A stretch of DNA of 63,963 bases, filler included, from Stramenopiles sp. TOSAG23-3 (Eukaryota): NCBI GenBank assembly GCA_900128585.1. It is 4 parts of 4 records of this genome, joined end to end, with 100 filler letters (N's around TTAATTAATTAA, not from the genome) between each part and the next. Parts side by side here need not be neighbours in the genome. Positions count along the whole stretch, not along the records: positions 41,392 to 61,877 come from LT642375.1; 3 more parts are not named here. One strand, given 5' to 3'. Both the position numbers and the translations under genes were made by a program. Positions 20,615-63,331 of the stretch are shown in pieces. A model generated the notes under the pieces. The model ran no database searches, had not been told where the DNA came from, and saw only the letters and a program-made list of their open reading frames with translations. The first letter of the stretch is position 1. The number at the start of each line of letters is the position of its first letter.

Positions 20615-20714
20615 NNNNNNNNNNNNNNNNNNNNNNNNNNNNNNNNNNNNNNNNNNNNTTAATTAATTAANNNNNNNNNNNNNNNNNNNNNNNNNNNNNN
20701 NNNNNNNNNNNNNN
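20615..20714. other. Artificial scaffold-concatenation linker
   Basis: 44 N + TTAATTAATTAA (stops in all six frames) + 44 N = 100 nt. Confidence 0.97.
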
Positions 20715-41291: not shown

Positions 41292-41391
41292 NNNNNNNNN
41301 NNNNNNNNNNNNNNNNNNNNNNNNNNNNNNNNNNNTTAATTAATTAANNNNNNNNNNNNNNNNNNNNNNNNNNNNNNNNNNNNNNNNNNNN
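41292..41391. other. Artificial scaffold-concatenation linker
   Basis: 44 N + TTAATTAATTAA + 44 N. Confidence 0.97.
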
Positions 41392-41792: not shown

Positions 41793-42048
41793 CTCCCGAG
41801 CACGAAAAAAAACCAAGCCTATTGCATGTTGCTAGCGTGCAACAGGGAGGGCAACAAAAAAACATTTCGTCGGCTGAGAGCTGAGAGCTCCNNNNNNNNN
41901 NNNNNNNNNNNNNNNNNNNNNNNNNNNNNNNNNNNNNNNNNNNNAGCTGAGAGCTCCCGAGCACGAAATGTTTTTTTTAATCCAAGCCTATTGCATGTTG
42001 CTAGCGTGCAACAGGGAGGGCAAGAAAAAAACATTTCGTCGGCCGAGA
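41793..42048 (+). repeat. Tandem ~100-bp palindromic unit (at least 2 copies) spanning an assembly gap (N 41892-41944)
   Basis: Both flanks read ctcccgagcacgaaa...ccaagcctattgcatgttgctagcgtgcaacagggagggcaa.aaaaaaacatttcgtcggc.gaga. Confidence 0.9.
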
Positions 42049-46067: not shown

Positions 46068-47087
46068 TCCCGCACACGGTAAACCCACACTTCTATAACA
46101 ACGAACAAAACTAAAACGAATACAAAAAAACTAAAACCTTCCTTCTCTCTCTGTGTGTGTCTATCTACCTCTCATTTTATCTTTACATCTAATTCAATTT
46201 TCTTTCCTTATTCTTTTCTCATTCTTTCTTTTTACATTCCTGGTAGAAGTAGTAAATATTTAGATATTGTTTTGATATTGACAACAAATGAGAACGAAGA
46301 ACTGCGATCATTCTTCTTCATTCACATTTTTATTATGTTTTTTATGTTACTGTATTATATTTATTATAATCTCGTCGGCTTTCCTACCCTCGCCACATCA
46401 CATCTAACTCCGCCCTAAATACCTAAATAACTCTTTATGCTGTACCTGTCTATTACATCCTAACTATTAATATATCAAGTATACTAAACGTGTAATACAA
46501 ATACGGATATCAAATACATCAGAATACCATACAAGTATGTAGGAGGCTCGTGAATTGGCACACGAAATCCCGCGCAGGACTTTATTGGGTATACATATAC
46601 TGCTTTTAAGAATATCCTCCTTGCGGGAGAAAACTGAAATTCCACATATGTCTCTTCATCAGTTCTGCAAGATAAGAATGCAGAAGGCGACTCATCAAAA
46701 ATTTGCTTTTTTTCAAAAAGAAATGACATCTTCAAAAATTCGACAATTGCCCAAACCATCTTTCTCTGTCGAAGAATACCCGAATGAACCCCTTACCGCT
46801 CCTGTCGGCTTTCCATATCCCGTCTATACTCGGTCTTTACACAAAATCGCTGCAGGAATTAAACCCACAATCTCCAGCAAGAAGCCGGTGCTCTATCTTT
46901 GAGCTAGCGATTAAAAACTCACGACTAGAATCAACTAGATGGCGAGAAAATCATATATATTGATTTTTTTCAATTTTCAATTTCCTTAATTGATATTCAG
47001 AATCATATTTGAGACCTTGCGGTCCCGAAGTTAAGTTCTTTTTTAAATTGAAAAGAATAGATATAATTGATTCACCAGGGAGACTGG

Positions 47088-56581: not shown

Positions 56582-57128
56582 CGCTGCTTTACAAAAAAGA
56601 AGAAGAAACCGTTCTGACAAGGTCCCCAGTAGCAACGAATGGCCGACTCTCTGTTTCAATCCTTTTCTTTTCCGTTTACATTGTATAAAAACAGAAATGC
56701 ATTCATTTAATATAAGTAATATACCAAGTAATTAAAAAAGAAGAAGAAGTGTCAAACAAAAAAAAAGAAGAAGAAGAAGAAAGAAGAAGAACGACGAAGA
56801 AAGAAGAAGAAAGAAGAAGAAAGAAGAAGAAGAAGAAAGAAGAAGAAAGAAAGAAAGAAAGAAAGAGAAGATTGAGTGGGGCGGCATATATGTTACGTAC
56901 CACCGTACCCAATACCCAATAATAATTTTATAAATTAATTAATAATAAATATTCCTCGGCGGCGGATTATTGGCCATTTGCTTGCAGCTTGCAGTACCGT
57001 ACGGTTTCCTCCAATCTGACATTAGATGAATATTCCTTCTACTTTTTCTTCACCTTATCATGTTACTTACCTTTCCTTTTACCCATACCCAAACCAACCA
57101 TTTTGAGTTAATTCCGCCAACCCCAATA

Positions 57129-59573
57129 ATGGCGGCGGTTTCCAATCCTTGGCTTGTTTTCCTGGCAACTGTGCTGACTTGTCCTATCCTCTTGGTCTCC
57201 TCCTCGACGTTTCCGCAGTGGGCGTCGGCAAGATATGGGCTCCGATTCGAAACGATGGGGGGATGGCCGACAGTTGCAAGGGAACTTTTGGACACGCGGG
57301 TGTCCCAGAGCGTGTTAGGTGCCAATGGGGTGGCCTGGTTTCTCACTTCCAAGGCAGATCTCGTGTGCTGCAGCAGTGTGCACGACTTGAGTGGGCAGTG
57401 CACGACGGTAGAGAGCGGGTTTTCCTCTGGGTCCTTCCTTGCAAGCATGAGCCCCGACGGGCCGGGACACGTCGCGGTCTTTGCAGAATCGGGGGAAATA
57501 TCACTCTTCGGGGAAGACAGGGTAGAACCATGCTCGACAGGTAGAGCGGTCACTAGCACCGACGCGTTCGGCACACTGTTCGATGTCTACAGCGGCCGGG
57601 AATTTACCCTCGTCGCGTCGGAAACGGGGCTGCACGTCCTCGCGGCCGAGGGCAACAGCAAGGACTCCCTTGGGCTTCAACCGCTGTGGTCTTGGTCTAA
57701 CCTCTGCGACGGGGCGAACCAGACGGTTGCCCCGGTCTACAGCGTCACATGTGCAGATGACGGATCCAACTGCGGGGCGGGGACTGAGCAGTGCTTTCTT
57801 TGGTTTGATGTTGCGGAAAAGAGACGAATTAGGCACGAGTGGACGGGCGGGCTCCTCGATGGTCGGCCGATCGCCGCCGTGTTTGCCGAGGGCTCGTACT
57901 GGGTCGCCACATCCAGGTCTTTGAACGAGTACAGGCTGCTCCCGATAGCGGGAGCTGCCGCAGGAGTCTGGCAACGCTACGCGGGCGGGCCCGGGGGGCT
58001 CCCGGCCGCGAACATCACGGACCTCGTGGCTGGCCCGGGATCAACTCTCGTGCTCGCCACTGCATCCGGAGTGGTCATCTTCGTGGACGGCAGGTTCGAC
58101 TTTTTGGCTGGCCCGCGGTGGCTGGCCACGGACAACGCCACAGACTCCGTTGCCTTCCTGAGCACAATCGAGAACGGAACGGTCGTCGTAGGGTCGTCGA
58201 AATTTCCCGGAATCTCGGTGCTGTCACTGAAGGAGTGGACCCTGCGTGCCAAGGCTATACACTTCCAACAGACGGTCGCCCCGCGACATTTTCGACTGCA
58301 CACGGGGCTGATATCGAGCCTTCCGTTGGCCGAGTTTGGCAATCTGGAGTCCGCCGACACGAATGCACCGGACGACAACGACGGGCTTTGGGCAGAGGAC
58401 TACCTGGCCGCGCAAAGCTTTCGGTACGCAGTAGGAGACGATCCCGCTGCCAAGAAAGACGCTGCCGCGCAAGCGCTCCAGATGCTGACCACCCTAGAGA
58501 ACCTGGTGAACGTGACCGGCGTCGCCGGCCTTCCTGCGAGGACCATGGTAGCGCACGCAGCCCATAAGAACGAGCCTGACCACTGGGGGTGGAACCCTTC
58601 GCTGACAAAAGAGGGGTGGTGGTTCATCGGGAACACATCGAGCGACGAGATGACGGGCCACATGTTCGGTCTCTCAGTTTTCATGGACGTGGGGCCGGTC
58701 CACTTGGAGTCCGCGGGAGCCCGGGCTCAAAAGCTGATGAACGACATGGTCACCAGGATCGTGAAGGGTGGGTTGGTTTTGAGGGACATTGAGTGGACCC
58801 ATGAAACGAAGTGGGGCCACTGGGATCCTTTGGACCTGAACGGGAACTTTTCGTGGTCCGACGAGCGGGGGCTTAACTCGCTCCAAATACTTGCATACTT
58901 AGCCACGGCGTTGGCGCACCAGCCGTCCCCGGAAAAGATCGCAGAGGAGCCGTACAAGTCCTACCTTGCTGTGCTTGGTCGTCTGGTCGATGCCGAAGGG
59001 TACCTTTTGAACATTCTGAACCAAAAAATTACAAGCCCGGGAGAGATCAATTTCTCAGACAACGACTTGGCGTTCAAGCCCTACTATACCCTAGGTGCTG
59101 CCTGCCAGTTTGGGTCGTTTGCAAACGGCAAGCGGTCGTTCTCATCCCCCGAGTTTGCGGCGTTGTGTAGAAAGATTGCCCCCGCGTTTCAGGCCAGCAT
59201 CCAGCGGGCATGGCGGGTCATTGCTCCTGGGAAGCAAAGCATGTTCGGCTTCATCTATGCTGCGGTAGTCGAGCTGAGTCCTGAGGCCAAAGCAGACGAC
59301 GCTGTCCAAGCATCAATAGAAACACTACAGGAGTACCCTGTGGACATAATAGAGTGGCCCACGGACAACCGCAAACGGGTCGACCTCGATGCAGATCAGG
59401 CCATGCTGCCATCAATCCTAAGGAGCAGGACAGCAATCCCGCGCCACCAGTCTGCTGCGTTGCGGTGGTGCGACGACCCATTTGCGTTTGTCGGTGGGAC
59501 TGGCATGAGGGAGGAGGACCCGACATTCTTCCTTGGCGCGTTCTGGTTGGCGGCGTTTCATCAGTTTGTGTGA
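57129..59573 (+). CDS. Secreted protein: beta-propeller-like N-terminal region + putative (alpha/alpha)6 glycoside-hydrolase-like domain
   Basis: Signal peptide; propeller-type 'GLPAANITDL', 'GPRWL'; motifs 'DNDGLW', 'GLPAR', 'GNTSSDEMTGH', 'TKWGHW', 'GLNSLQILAYL', 'NFSDNDLAF', 'FLGAFW'. Confidence 0.75.
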   Translation: MAAVSNPWLVFLATVLTCPILLVSSSTFPQWASARYGLRFETMGGWPTVARELLDTRVSQSVLGANGVAWFLTSKADLVCCSSVHDLSGQCTTVESGFSSGSFLASMSPDGPGHVAVFAESGEISLFGEDRVEPCSTGRAVTSTDAFGTLFDVYSGREFTLVASETGLHVLAAEGNSKDSLGLQPLWSWSNLCDGANQTVAPVYSVTCADDGSNCGAGTEQCFLWFDVAEKRRIRHEWTGGLLDGRPIAAVFAEGSYWVATSRSLNEYRLLPIAGAAAGVWQRYAGGPGGLPAANITDLVAGPGSTLVLATASGVVIFVDGRFDFLAGPRWLATDNATDSVAFLSTIENGTVVVGSSKFPGISVLSLKEWTLRAKAIHFQQTVAPRHFRLHTGLISSLPLAEFGNLESADTNAPDDNDGLWAEDYLAAQSFRYAVGDDPAAKKDAAAQALQMLTTLENLVNVTGVAGLPARTMVAHAAHKNEPDHWGWNPSLTKEGWWFIGNTSSDEMTGHMFGLSVFMDVGPVHLESAGARAQKLMNDMVTRIVKGGLVLRDIEWTHETKWGHWDPLDLNGNFSWSDERGLNSLQILAYLATALAHQPSPEKIAEEPYKSYLAVLGRLVDAEGYLLNILNQKITSPGEINFSDNDLAFKPYYTLGAACQFGSFANGKRSFSSPEFAALCRKIAPAFQASIQRAWRVIAPGKQSMFGFIYAAVVELSPEAKADDAVQASIETLQEYPVDIIEWPTDNRKRVDLDADQAMLPSILRSRTAIPRHQSAALRWCDDPFAFVGGTGMREEDPTFFLGAFWLAAFHQFV

Positions 59574-60427
59574 GGGAGGGGGAGCAAGTAACGTGATAGG
59601 GTGGGTTATCCTGGCACAAAGTAAATGTAAGTGATGTATGTGACATCAATAGCGAAATATTCAAAATTTTTTCGTATTCTTTTATACCCACGCACCGATA
59701 ATGTCAAATTAAATTCCAAAATATAAATCAAAAACAAGAAAATTGGCTGTTATTTAAGTAATTAAATTTAGCTTCAAATATAAATCTACTTTTATAATAT
59801 TTATTATGGTTTCCTCGTAGACTAATCCTAATAAATAAAACAAGAAAATTGGCTCATACCCTAATCCTAACTTGATCATGAAATTTTGTTTGTGTTCGTG
59901 TTATTACCTGTTAAAATGTATTCAGCGCAAAATGGATCGGTAATTTTATTTAGAAGAGTAGTTATACATTATACAGCATTAAAATTGGATCGAAAATTCT
60001 ACAACAATTATTTACAAACAACTCTTTTACTACAATTACCTGTTATTACCTGTTAATTTATCGCCAGTCAAATCTTTTTTTTTAAATAAATAAAAGCTTA
60101 ATAAACAAACAACAACAGGAACACACCGTACAGTTAGGGAAGTAGAGAAAAATTATTGTTGATGAATAAAATCTACAAGGAACAAAATAACGCACAGGCA
60201 AACACCATCACAGGCACAAACATAAGCACCACCAAAAGCACCACCAAAACGTTTACTTCATTATTCGAACACATATTTACAGGGACGTCACCTCAATAAG
60301 TAGCACGATGGATGGAACGAAAGTAAAAACGAATCGGTCCTCAGAAATAAAATCGAAATATACATTATTAGTTAACAAACAGGCAGTGTGTTATATTATT
60401 CAAGATTAAAAAGTATTGAGGACTAGA

Positions 60428-61877
60428 ATGTTTTCAAAGGCGTTCTTTGTCCTTTCCGTCTTCTTGGCGGCAAGCTGTTGTGTGCAGGGACAGTTTCTCC
60501 GTGGGAGGGAGGGAAGGGGCCTTGAGGACAATGCGGGGTTTGTCGCTGAAATGGAAGGTCGACGCCTGGGCAACAGCAACAATGATCTCTTTGCTGACAG
60601 TGTCTTTCTCGAAGGTGCCCTAGGGATGCAACAACGACGGCTTTCTTCGATGCTCCGTCCGGAGCTGAAAACTGCCCTCGTGGTTTATGATGACGAGAGC
60701 AGTGGCGAAGCGCACGGGCGAAGGTTGCGCAAGAAGAAGGGGAAAAAAAGGTCCCGTAAGCCTGCGCCGAGGAGGAGGGCTCCAAAGCGCGCACCGAGGA
60801 AGAGGGCTCCGAAGCGCGCACCGAGGAAGAGGGCCCCGAAGCGCGCGCCGAAGAGGAGGGCCCCGAAGCGCGCACCGAAGAGGAGGGCCCCGAAGCGCGC
60901 GCCGAAGAGGAGGGCCCCGAAGCGCGCACCGAAGAGGAGGGCCCCGAAGCGCGCACCGAAGAGGAGGGCCCCGAAGCGTGCACCGAGGAAGAGGAAACCA
61001 AAGCCTGCGCCAAGGAAGAGGGCTCCTAAGCGTTACAAGAAGAATAAACCTTTGGAGAAGAGAAAGCGGAAGCATGTTAAGAAAGAAGGCAAGAAGAAGA
61101 AACCTTTGAAGAAGAAGCATGTTAAGAAAGACGGCAAGAAGAAGAAACCATTGAAGAAGAGAAAGGACAACAAGAAGAAACCTTTGAAGAAGAGAAAGAA
61201 GAAGCCTGTTAAGAANNNNNNNNNNNNNNNNNNNNNNNNNNNNNNNNNNNNNNNNNNNNNNNNNNNNNNNNNNNNNNNNCCTTTGAAGAAGAGAAAGAAG
61301 AAGCCTGTTAAGAAAGAAGGCAAGAAGAAGAAACCTTTGAAGAAGAAGCATGTCAAGAAAGACGGCGAGAAGAAGAAACCATTGAAGAAGAAAAAGGACA
61401 AAAAGAAGAAACCTTTGAAGAAGAGAGAGAAGAAGCCTGTTAAAAGAAAGCGGAATGAAAAGGGAAAGAATGTCGACAAGAAAAAGCGCAAGAAAGGCGA
61501 CAAGAAAAAGCGCGAGAAACGCCGGCGAGAACGCATAGCTGGGAAGGAAAAGGAAATGCGAAAGAAATTTAAACGCCGGCAAGCAGACAAGGAGAAACGT
61601 GAGAAGGAGATGAAAAAGGACATCCGAGATAAAATAAAACGCCGGTTCGAACGCAAAGCGGAGGAAGAGGAAATGCGAGACAACGACGACGAACACTTTG
61701 ATGACGAAGAACACTATGATGACGACGAACACTATGATGACGACGAACACTATGATGACGACGAACACTATGATGACGACGAACACTATGATGATGACGA
61801 GGAAGAGTGGTATGAAGAGGAAGAGTGTGACCCGGAGATGTACGATTGCTATGGCCAGGATGGTGGTGAAGAGTCGT
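60428..61877 (+). CDS. Secreted low-complexity Lys/Arg-rich repeat protein with RXL motifs and acidic DDDEHY repeats (3' truncated at scaffold end; internal gap 61216-61279)
   Basis: Signal peptide MFSKAFFVLSVFLAASCCVQG; RGL and three RRL motifs; 27-bp (KRAPKRRAP) repeats, KKPLKK repeats, 18-bp (DDDEHY) repeats. Confidence 0.82.
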
Positions 61878-61977
61878 NNNNNNNNNNNNNNNNNNNNNNN
61901 NNNNNNNNNNNNNNNNNNNNNTTAATTAATTAANNNNNNNNNNNNNNNNNNNNNNNNNNNNNNNNNNNNNNNNNNNN
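61878..61977. other. Artificial scaffold-concatenation linker
   Basis: 44 N + TTAATTAATTAA + 44 N. Confidence 0.97.
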
Positions 61978-63331
61978 TGTCTTCTCCCTCTTTCTTCTTT
62001 CTTTGCTGTTTTTCACTCTTTGCCGTCAGTGTAGAATTCACCGTCTTATCTCCCGTCACCAATGTCTTTGTTGCATTTTCCTCTTTCTTTTCTTGTTCTC
62101 TCAATTTCTCTCTTTTATTTTCCTCTCGTTTCTTCTTTCTTTGCTGTTCTATCAATTTCTTTTTTTCATTTTCCTCTTTCTTCTTTCTTTGTTGTTTTCT
62201 TGTTGTTTTCTTACAGGTTTGTCCAGCATGGCAACCATTATACGGCTTACTCCAATCTTTACCATATATATTAGCCAATAACTGTTTGGAATTATTCATA
62301 ACAGGAAATGCCATTCCATTTAAAGATACCCAGTGCTTGTGCGTCCAGTCAGATTTTTGAATCAGCCATCCATCATGGTTCATGTTGGTATTAATAATGA
62401 TGTATGAAGAATTCTTTTCTCCTACTTCAGATCCGTTGATAAGAAAATTTATTGCAATTGAGATTCTGTAAATAGCACCTTTCCAAATAACGTCCATCTG
62501 AGATGGTCTGGTTTTCCCCATAAATTTTTGGCTTCCCCAGGTTTCAACATGAGTAAATGTGGTTCTAAGTGATGCTTCAAGCGCTTTGTGCTTTTCACTG
62601 GTGATATTGTTGGGGCTTACCATAAAAAATTCCCCGTCATATTCCCAACACATTATATAGCCATCTCGAACAGCACCTAAGAGTGTCCCTAAACCCAAAG
62701 TAAAAGAAACAGAATGTTCCGTTAACGTTTTGGCAAGCTTTTCAAAAGCAGCATATGCCAGTCTATGTGAAAATGGTCCCTTTCTTGTACACTCACTTGT
62801 ATTATAGTCATATTCTGGCGTTGAAAAGTTTTCACAGCACCAGACATTACGTGGCATACCCTTCCTTGGCAGGGTTGCAAGTGGGGTTCTGTACTGTTTA
62901 CAGTCTTTGTCTCTGCATTGAAATAGCGACCAAAGTGTATTAGTTTTACTCGTCTCGTTTACTGTATTGTTTACTCTTCTACTCTTTTTTGAAACCTCCT
63001 CTTGAGAGTAAATTTTCTCATTTCGCAGAAAACCAACTTCTCCTATGCCCAATGGGTAGTTCTCCCGACGAAATTTACCTCCACGCAAAATATTTATACC
63101 AACATCCTCTTCACTGCATATATTTTTGCAGACTTCTGCTTCCGTCTTGTTTGATTCTACAAGAACAAGAGTAATTTCCTGTTTGTTTCTTTTATGTGTT
63201 CCCTCGATACTCTGGACGGGGACAGTACCACTAAAATACAATGCACTGTGTATATTCCATTCGAACGGAAGATAAAAGGAAACAAAACATACAGTGATTA
63301 TGAACACAATGATACGTTTGTTTTGCTCCAT
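61978..63331 (-). CDS. LicD/fukutin-family phosphotransferase, type II membrane protein (3' truncated at scaffold edge)
   Basis: N-terminal TM 'IIVFIITVCFVSFYL'; 'LGLGTLLGAVRDGYIMCWEYDGEF'; 'FPVMNNSKQLLANIYGKDWSKP'; Lys/Glu-rich tail. Confidence 0.85.

Follow-up and report, generated by a model that had tools for sequence, protein, structure and literature searches.

The locus comprises a single reading frame on the plus strand, open at its 3' end (60428-61877), within the window, defined here as the whole stretch of DNA analysed (63,963 nucleotides). The open reading frame (ORF) starts at the ATG at 60428, with an in-frame TAA (60407-60409) located 21 nt upstream and no further ATG in the interval 60380-60427. 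The assembled sequence is interrupted by a run of N (61216-61279), flanked on both sides by an identical 35-nt stretch, with 61280-61314 repeating 61181-61215. Contigs from one DNA run (X1) and two RNA runs (X11 and X17) join 61180 straight to 61280, skipping 99 nt, with the 35 nt fitting both sides of the joint, and a loose contig end from X18 agrees with this arrangement. The unmerged overlap, together with the direct contig joints, indicates that the N run is empty, so that 61216-61314 (64 N plus the duplicated 35 nt) is an assembly artefact, and that the known protein comprises 450 residues after gap closure. Of the two gaps that the earlier note had proposed to close, the first therefore closes in frame, whereas the second (61878-61977) is not a gap but a contig-joining linker, 44 N + TTAATTAATTAA + 44 N, lying outside the gene, which is cut at the contig end. 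Three such linkers occur in the window, the others at 20615-20714 and 41292-41391; since they join separate contigs, the ORF and the gene that comes after it in the window are not neighbours.

An open frame of this kind could arise as a by-product of purine-rich repeats in a transcribed low-complexity minisatellite encoding no functional protein, and two observations are in line with this reading: (i) the opposite strand and the other frames are also open over the repeats, with antisense ORFs of 388, 196, and 216 aa, and (ii) the 18 differences detected in variant contigs comprise 7 synonymous and 11 non-synonymous changes when read in the ORF frame, while the other frames give 3-8 synonymous changes, a split that fails to single out the ORF frame and is not decisive. 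On the other hand, one frame remains unbroken across five compositionally distinct repeat families and a non-repetitive leader, and all eight Tandem Repeats Finder rows scoring at least 89 inside the ORF have a period that is a multiple of 3 and contain 0% indels. The repeat-unit variants are synonymous or K/R swaps according to the codon table, and the change in repeat number between assemblies, with eight nonapeptides in the metagenome copy P0009 compared to ten here, preserves the frame. In addition, the codon-position GC of the ORF (0.54/0.37/0.63) is gene-like, resembling that of the Pfam-supported genes of the window, and the leader is conserved at the protein level in a second lineage. 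We regard the minisatellite as the least probable of the readings considered in this work.

The ORF is transcribed, a point whose absence the earlier note had listed against its own proposal. The ORF stretch is contained in 20 of the 24 listed sequencing runs, six of which are RNA runs from four studies, including polyA libraries, and the gene is widespread in marine metagenomes and metatranscriptomes. The RNA contigs, which carry no readout of RNA strand or level, are collinear with the ORF and reach a lowest coordinate of 60380, delimiting a 5' untranslated leader (60380-60427, plus strand) that is spanned by an X11 contig covering 60380-60877. No contig from three RNA runs falls on 60000-60377, a region into which the DNA run X1 extends (60100-60877). 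An X17 joint skipping 219 nt within the array of KRAP-type repeats was distrusted, with just 21 letters on one side. The exact 27-nt 3' pattern returned no match in metagenome contigs, and the sole match of the protein search in these contigs, locus L001, was rejected as a bacterial contig read antisense to a Big_2-type gene.

By rule of thumb, the N-terminus (residues 1-22; 60428-60493, plus strand) resembles a signal peptide, comprising one Lys, an 11-residue hydrophobic core AFFVLSVFLAA (residues 5-15), with a Kyte-Doolittle mean of 2.64 that is the maximum of the protein, and then small residues, which occupy positions -3/-1 of two candidate cleavage sites (A-A-S16 and V-Q-G21). A putative RXL domain follows (residues 23-100; 60494-60727, plus strand), with FLRG at residues 23-26 and four RXL motifs on the same strand: RGL (residues 30-32; 60515-60523) and three RRL (residues 45-47, 60560-60568; residues 70-72, 60635-60643; and residues 98-100, 60719-60727), the last of which reads RRLR, to 60730. 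In their contexts RGLED, RRLGN, RRLSS, and RRLRK, the motifs are found 8-78 residues downstream of the predicted signal peptide. Of 100,000 shuffles that preserved composition, 33 attained three RRL within residues 23-101 and 3,881 attained four or more RXL within the same residues. As a background, among the 39 ORFs of at least 150 aa in the window, the 36 located away from the locus contain 5 RRL in about 14,700 aa. The variant P0011 (79% identical; 81/103 identities and a six-residue deletion) keeps the signal-like N-terminal region with its hydrophobic core and the four sites as RGL/RRL/RQL/RRL, losing the RGLED context through the deletion; by our estimate, about one in five such sets survive by chance at 79% identity, so that the conservation of the four sites is not significant alone.

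The leader abuts an Arg/Lys/Pro/Ala polycation (residues 101-200; 60728-61027, plus strand), comprising a basic lead-in and ten KRAP-type nonapeptides, K[RP]AP[KR][KR]R[AK]P, detected as a 27-nt unit repeated 8.4 times with 94% matches. Two super-units of Lys-rich KKKKPLKK/KKHVKK repeats with 45- and 33-nt periods follow on the same strand, the first (61028-61215) aligning with the copy to the right of the gap and the second (61315-61444) placed by this alignment and the repeat periods. For the C-terminal 199 residues, AlphaFold2 run on the single sequence predicts one long charged K/R/E helix at P0004 residues 63-134 (61466-61681, plus strand), a segment containing no Pro, and no other secondary structure, with mean pLDDT values per ten-residue block of 84-98 over P0004 residues 71-130 and 51-67 elsewhere. 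The predicted helix stands between the two charge blocks of the protein. The acidic His/Tyr repeat (DDDEHY) x 6.4 (61685-61800, plus strand; 18-nt unit, 95% matches, score 211) then leads into the first acidic Trp/Tyr/Cys module, EEEWYEEEE-C-x6-C-YGQDGGEES (61799-61877, plus strand), which is cut by the contig end. RNA contigs continue beyond 61877 with a further copy of the sequence that starts at 61799, with module joints from 61877 back to 61799 (X11), from 61823 to 61799 (X17 and X18), and from 61849 to 61796 (X11), and loose contig ends display further C-D-P-E-x-Y-x-C variants, the acidic C-x6-C modules continuing. Contig depth over 61764-61877 is 5-10x that of the remainder in X17 and X18; since depth cannot rank the parts of the gene, this excess was not counted as evidence of copy number.

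This anatomy agrees with that read in the earlier note, which had described a signal peptide, FLRG and four RXL motifs (RGL and three RRL, the last RRLR) just before the basic repeats, about ten KRAP repeats, Lys-rich KKPLKK/KKHVKK repeats (recovered here as KKKPLKK), and a (DDDEHY)x~6/EEEWYEEEE acidic block, all of which are found in frame. The polycation and polyanion of the same description correspond to an extreme segregation of both charges (z = 7.6 versus 2,000 shuffles; kappa about 0.37). The net charge per 25-residue block ranges from +10 to +16 over residues 101-350 and from -12 to -17 from residue 376, the last 62 residues carrying a net charge of -37. The known part of the protein is net +97, and the charge balance depends on the C-terminal modules beyond the contig end. 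The charge-hydropathy line classes every segment of residues 101-450 as disordered.

As judged by sequence searches, the protein is an orphan, restricted to its lineage and without relatives of known function. Among 1.84 billion representative proteins, the accepted matches comprise its own cluster and the 79%-identical variant. The leader alone returned three matches in this set: two correspond to this gene or to its variant, and P0008, a repeat protein of 1,934 aa whose score was spread over 26 stretches, was discarded as spurious; against 5.8 billion clustered proteins, it returned one match among 120 candidates, again the same gene. C-terminal queries found no match among 831 and 840 candidates, respectively, no Pfam family was found at E ≤ 1 in either half of the protein, and PDB sequences, the ESM Atlas, and viral_contigs gave no match. 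A hit to an NCBIfam sigma-factor model was rejected as a 19-bit low-complexity match, compared to a cut-off of 711 bits.

We tentatively favour a reading in which the gene encodes a secretory-pathway pro-protein, mostly disordered and probably cut at RRL, whose charge blocks would neutralise each other for packaging. The N-terminus would act as a cleaved ER signal peptide, and the 78-residue leader as an 'RXL domain', removed in the ER/Golgi by a cut after RRL, with the last candidate site, RRL|R, placed exactly at the start of the polycation. Such a cut is modelled on diatom biosilica precursors, on Toxoplasma ASP5 (RRLxx), and on Phytophthora RXLR (after Leu). The removal of a leader of this layout, located behind the signal peptide, is described for diatom biosilica proteins in the excerpts of PMC5525289 and PMC4557024, whereas in Toxoplasma ASP5 requires R-R-L at P3-P1 and cuts RRLxx (PMC4764566, in excerpt), and cleavage at RXLR, behind the Leu, precedes secretion and takes place in disordered regions near the signal peptide (PMC11754927, abstract). 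The mature chain would be a block polyampholyte comprising (i) a Pro-punctuated Arg/Lys block of about 280-285 residues and about +130, (ii) a charged helix of about 72 residues, serving as a spacer or pairing element, and (iii) a tail in which Asp/Glu-His-Tyr-Trp modules bearing C-x6-C pairs form a growing series. The acidic tail may neutralise the polycation, within or between molecules, enabling dense coacervate-like packing in secretory vesicles without harm to the cell, with one His per six residues making the pairing potentially pH-sensitive. Once set free in a vacuole or in the extracellular space, the polycation would bind polyanionic targets, and the Tyr/Cys modules could cross-link. 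Counted against a secretory protein, K/R-rich repeats would act as nuclear localisation signals were the protein cytosolic. Among possible end uses, we rank an extracellular or vesicular matrix or adhesive above an antibacterial or prey-binding function, and the latter above mineral templating.

A material counterpart of such packing is the cement of sabellariid (sandcastle) worms, in which oppositely charged repetitive secreted proteins are condensed in granules by complex coacervation (PMC12621633, in excerpt); nevertheless, the worm cement relies on separate polybasic and polyphosphoserine animal proteins, whereas here both charges lie on one chain and the acidity derives from Asp/Glu. A fuller scenario, which we consider improbable in all its parts together, is that a free-living, uncultured marine flagellate uses RRL/RXL maturation for a single-chain, self-neutralised polyelectrolyte, in which a Pro-protected polycation of ~280 residues would be held inert by its own His-gated Tyr/Trp/Cys polyanion tail across a rigid helix and stored as an intramolecular complex coacervate, until proteolysis or acidification switches it on, sticking to or killing bacterial prey or building a cell covering. 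To our knowledge, the proteins in which RRL/RXL-directed maturation has been examined to date are the shell proteins of diatoms and the effectors of apicomplexans and oomycetes.

The earlier note had proposed a silaffin/cingulin-like precursor, a reading in which silica scales, plates, or another mineral would form on a template of RXL-processed polycationic peptides and their acidic aromatic partner. Any polycation precipitates silica in vitro, so that polycation chemistry is not diagnostic of a biosilica role. A silaffin-type cut-off of at least 18 Ser and at least 10 Lys per 100 residues was tried, and Ser accounts for 11 of the 450 residues, with a maximum of 9 per 100-residue window, in keeping with the caveat of the same note that the protein lacks Ser-richness. 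The architecture does recall diatom biosilica proteins: silaffins (Sil1p, tpSil3), silacidins, and Sin1 share a signal peptide and a short leader ending in RRL, followed by a low-complexity, charged, repetitive mature part, with a polycation accompanied by a polyanion (PMC5525289 and PMC4557024, in excerpt), and the silicanin homologues of parmaleans also comprise a signal peptide and an RXL domain (PMC10328945). Cingulins CinY and CinW from Thalassiosira pseudonana pair KXXK Lys-cluster regions with Tyr/Trp-rich regions in one secreted repetitive protein, as described in the excerpt of PMC4557024, and the protein here displays 37 KxxK spacings. However, their inner residues are K, P, L, H, or V, and K[SG][SG]K, the core of the published silaffin-like screen (repeated KXXK with X = S or G, 1-6 residues apart; PMC5501833, in excerpt), occurs 0 times in the known 450 residues. 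Furthermore, the basic block is Arg/Lys-Pro-Ala compared to Lys-Ser in silaffins, from which sequence similarity is absent; RXL is confined to the leader rather than recurring between repeats as in diatom RXL precursors; and the regions that alternate in cingulins appear here, in the part seen, as blocks (basic 101-350, helix, acidic-aromatic 376-450), with aromatic modules that are extremely acidic, carry His and paired Cys, and have no silica context. The searches made returned no homology to named proteins, and the organism is not known to silicify and gives no sign of doing so. The proposal is thus partly supported, standing as an architectural analogy (signal-like N-terminus, RXL leader, and polycation) and lacking support as a membership claim, and a biomineral matrix precursor is very unlikely. 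Labelling a protein 'silaffin-like' from its composition takes little, whereas supporting the label is difficult, and the published motif criteria fail here.

A self-neutralised antibacterial or prey-binding precursor of a bacterivore, whose acidic His tail would free the Pro-protected polycation on acidification of the food vacuole, is unlikely, although it is the most credible of the rivals. Pro beside a basic residue hinders protease cutting, and Pro accounts for 21% of the KRAP block (22/104); the leader diverges fast, the repeat number varies, the gene has a wide marine occurrence, and flagellar genes lie nearby in the window. The charge balance also follows the logic of cationic host-defence peptide precursors, α-defensins and cathelicidins, in which an anionic segment offsets the cationic product of the same precursor (PMC4571063, in excerpt). 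Nevertheless, such precursors carry their propiece at the N-terminus and yield small peptides, folded or helical; in the present protein the repetitive acidic region lies C-terminally, and the cationic region, at about 280 residues, far exceeds known antimicrobial peptides in size, with no internal sites to release small peptides (RXL 0 in residues 102-450). The organism gives no sign here of bacterivory, and a term search of a paper on flagellate bacterivory finds 'antimicrobial' in the reference list only (PMC10268365). We place somewhat lower, as decidedly unlikely, a nuclear or nucleolar basic protein of histone-H1-like or HMG-like type with an acidic tail, whose hydrophobic N-terminus would lack signal-peptide function. 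The K/R-Pro-Ala repeats and KKRKKKP stretches resemble H1 tails and nuclear localisation signals, and a basic block with an acidic tail is a common chromatin-protein layout, but the first ATG of the transcript leads straight into the hydrophobic core, which P0011 keeps, no linker-histone, HMG, or other Pfam domain is found at E ≤ 1, and neither the paired Cys modules nor the RRL enrichment plays a part in a nuclear role. An exported parasite effector, in which the signal peptide and an RRL (TEXEL/RXLR-like) element would direct NLS-like repeats to a host nucleus, is less probable still than a mineral matrix. Toxoplasma ASP5 substrates such as GRA16, Plasmodium PMV substrates, and Phytophthora RXLR effectors likewise have a signal peptide and, behind it, a disordered leader that contains R-R-L or R-x-L-R; these known proteins are cleaved behind the Leu in the ER/Golgi prior to release (PMC4764566 and PMC11754927). 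According to the motif definitions of the same two papers, RRL as the ASP5 motif (RRLxx) of exported dense-granule proteins, RGLED fitting the PEXEL consensus RxLxE/Q/D quoted in the ASP5 paper, and RRLR as the last site all occur here a short way downstream of the predicted signal peptide, in a probably disordered part of the chain. However, nothing points to parasitism or to a host, the flagellar genes of the window are of free-living type, the protein carries four motifs versus one in these effectors, with no EER after the motif, and the RGLED context is the one lost in P0011.

Returning to the favoured secretory pro-protein, no aspartic protease was found among the 21 window proteins scanned with Pfam. 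If the leader is truly cut at RRL, the gene would serve as a simple reporter of an RXL-type maturation protease beyond diatoms and parasites, an enzyme described as still unidentified in diatoms in the excerpt of PMC5525289, and the cut would support RXL processing as an old feature common to the secretory pathways of these protist groups. As a natural block polyampholyte, the mature protein would be unusually clean, with polycation, helix, and polyanion on one chain, and relevant to research on coacervates, wet adhesives, antibacterial polycations, and peptides that precipitate silica.

The ORF at 60428-61877 (+) is open in its frame from the ATG at 60428 through 61877, with an in-frame TAA 21 nt upstream of that ATG and no second ATG found between 60380 and 60428. 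The encoded protein comprises (i) a signal-peptide-like N-terminus, as read from the sequence (residues 1-22); (ii) a mixed leader of 78 residues with one RGL and three RRL motifs, the last of which, RRLR, abuts the basic region; (iii) an Arg/Lys/Pro/Ala region of ~105 residues, including ten K[RP]AP[KR][KR]R[AK]P nonapeptides; (iv) ~100 residues of Lys-rich KKKKPLKK/KKHVKK repeats; (v) a mixed K/R/E segment of ~80 residues; (vi) a (DDDEHY) x 6 acidic repeat; and (vii) an EEEWYEEEE-C-x6-C-YGQDGGEES module, the last in the visible protein. Every feature that an earlier note had listed for this ORF was found where it had been placed; its observation is thus confirmed, with the gene boundaries corrected.

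Three identical 44N+TTAATTAATTAA+44N six-frame-stop linkers (20615-20714, 41292-41391 and 61878-61977) interrupt the window, which strings together at least four separate contigs and is no single chromosome piece; a plain N run also occurs at 41892-41944. Because the linkers join separate contigs, gene order across them is meaningless, the gene under study is cut at its contig end, 61877, and the LicD-like gene next in the window (61979-63331, minus strand) is no true neighbour. This LicD-like gene matches Pfam LicD at E 0.0026, below the cut-off, and the NCBIfam cholinephosphotransferase Mf1 at E 3.3e-07, far below the cut-off; its K/E/R-rich C-terminal tail enters the linker, so that it is truncated too.

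The inner N run (61216-61279) carries the same 35-nt stretch on both flanks, and 61180 is joined directly to 61280 in contigs of one DNA and two RNA runs, a fourth run contributing a loose end consistent with this joint. The run hides no sequence, and 450 aa of the protein are known. The joint and the flanking identity resolve the Lys-rich part into two super-units around an empty gap, and in alignment these lie head to tail. Of the two gaps that the earlier note wished to see closed, the inner one is therefore closed as empty, whereas the second is a contig linker. Beyond 61877, RNA contigs enter further copies of the acidic module, with joints returning to 61796/61799 and loose ends encoding more C-D-P-E-x-Y-x-C variants; the acidic tail is thus longer than the window shows.

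Tandem Repeats Finder discloses in the ORF a 27-nt unit (x 8.4, 94% matches) with an 81-nt super-unit, units of 45, 33 and 24 nt in the Lys-rich part, and an 18-nt unit (x 6.4, 95% matches); all eight rows scoring >=89 inside the ORF show periods divisible by three and zero indels. The nonapeptide repeats vary by third-position synonymous changes or K/R swaps, and GC by codon position (0.54/0.37/0.63) is consistent with ten window reference genes, namely nine with Pfam hits and the neighbour P0002. Three Leu/Phe- or Ser-rich antisense ORFs, of 388 aa (60620-61786), 216 aa (61033-61683) and 196 aa (60423-61013), all on the minus strand, were rejected as genes, since they mirror the purine-rich repeats of the coding strand. 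Within the leader, three RRL motifs were reached in 33 of 100,000 shuffles and four or more RXL in 3,881 of 100,000; residues 102-450 contain zero RXL, and across ~14,700 aa of the window's other 36 ORFs of >=150 aa there are 5 RRL.

The target stretch occurs, whole or in part, in 20 of the 24 listed public runs, from 14 studies, and 19 of these runs contain half or more of its sampled words. Organism-labelled holder runs are marine or seawater metagenomes, the exceptions being two small runs that carry the code 'organism A'. Expression, whose absence would have refuted the earlier note, is borne out by six RNA libraries (4 studies; three libraries polyA-selected) and by RNA contigs of three studies that cover 60380-61877 collinearly and without intron, contigs that show neither strand nor level. 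RNA contigs are absent from 60000-60377, and a DNA run covers 60100-60877; the contig-level comparison comprised 4 of the holder runs.

A leader search of 5.8 billion clusters and 1.84 billion representatives returned database proteins only from the same gene (P0005, P0006, P0009 and P0010) and from one variant lineage (P0007 and P0011); a further match, the 1,934-aa repeat protein P0008, was rejected as spurious. P0009 displays 8 nonapeptides versus 10 here. The second lineage or allele is present in marine RNA as well as DNA data, and its contigs show 14-17 differences over ~200 nt in the region of 60595-60767. P0011 shows 81/103 identities (79%) and a deletion of 6 residues, its four sites all being retained as RGL, RRL, RQL and RRL. 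The leader evolves fast, and at such divergence the retained sites speak only weakly for the motifs. C-terminal queries (residues 56-199 and the last 70 residues of P0004, the 199 aa right of the inner N run) gave no protein match, and nothing usable emerged from Pfam (up to E <= 1), NCBIfam, PDB sequences, the ESM Atlas, JGI metagenome contigs or viral contigs. As judged by these searches, the protein is an orphan.

Charged residues make up 66% of residues 101-450, the net charge per 25-residue block being +10 to +16 up to residue 350 and -12 to -17 from 376, a segregation above that of 2,000/2,000 shuffles (z = 7.6, kappa ~0.37). All mature segments fall on the disordered side of the charge-hydropathy boundary, and the leader is borderline. 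AlphaFold2, run on the last 199 residues as a single sequence, predicts a single 72-residue helix (61466-61681; ten-residue block means of pLDDT 84-98 over P0004 residues 71-130) and no other structure. Nine of the 10 Tyr lie amid acidic residues, and apart from the signal peptide Cys occurs only in the C-x6-C pair.

Beyond an expressed ORF with this anatomy, what follows is what we infer: we read the product as a pro-protein of the secretory pathway. Its hydrophobic start (KD 2.64) would direct it into the ER, and the leader resembles in form the 'RXL domain' described behind the signal peptide of many diatom biosilica proteins, where an unknown protease removes it (PMC5525289, PMC4557024). 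A cut at RRL|R, the final site, would release the polycation. The Toxoplasma Golgi protease ASP5 is described as strictly requiring R-R-L at P3-P1 (PMC4764566). In Phytophthora, RXLR motifs that fall in disordered sequence close to the signal peptide are reported to undergo cleavage behind the Leu before the protein is secreted (PMC11754927). The oppositely charged blocks should pair with each other, as in the charge-balance idea put forward for defensin and cathelicidin precursors (PMC4571063) or the coacervate packaging reported for oppositely charged worm-cement proteins (PMC12621633), and the His present once in each acidic hexapeptide could render this pairing pH-dependent.

The silaffin/cingulin-like identity originally proposed holds in its layout, with signal peptide, RXL leader, lysine clusters and an aromatic acidic partner, but not in its defining composition. 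The protein is Ser-poor, as the earlier note had cautioned in contrasting it with true silaffins; KXXK with X = S or G, the silaffin-like screening motif as given in PMC5501833, is absent from it; and its visible part lacks the alternation of K-rich and aromatic parts that characterizes cingulins. The label is an analogy rather than membership, and there is little evidence in favour of any one function. What the data support best is its description as an expressed orphan, a secreted pro-protein of block-polyampholyte type that bears RRL sites. It may exemplify RXL-type processing beyond diatoms and parasites, and it is a natural polycation-helix-polyanion in one chain.

Immediately upstream on the contig of the target gene, and likewise on the plus strand, an 837-aa ORF (57060-59573) displays a hydrophobic signal-like stretch behind an internal Met at residue 24 and zero matches in Pfam, NCBIfam and PDB sequences; it is a second orphan, possibly secreted. 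The spacer between the two (59574-60427) is AT-rich (31% GC) and contains three pairs of 16-18 nt direct repeats, e.g., AAAACAAGAAAATTGGCT x2 and TGTTATTACCTGTTAA x2. Elsewhere, the window encodes flagellar proteins of the tubulin-tyrosine ligase family (E 6.3e-49) and GAS8 (E 1.7e-70) according to Pfam, and its sole Rfam match at gathering score is a tRNA-Arg(TCT) at 46844-46912 (-).
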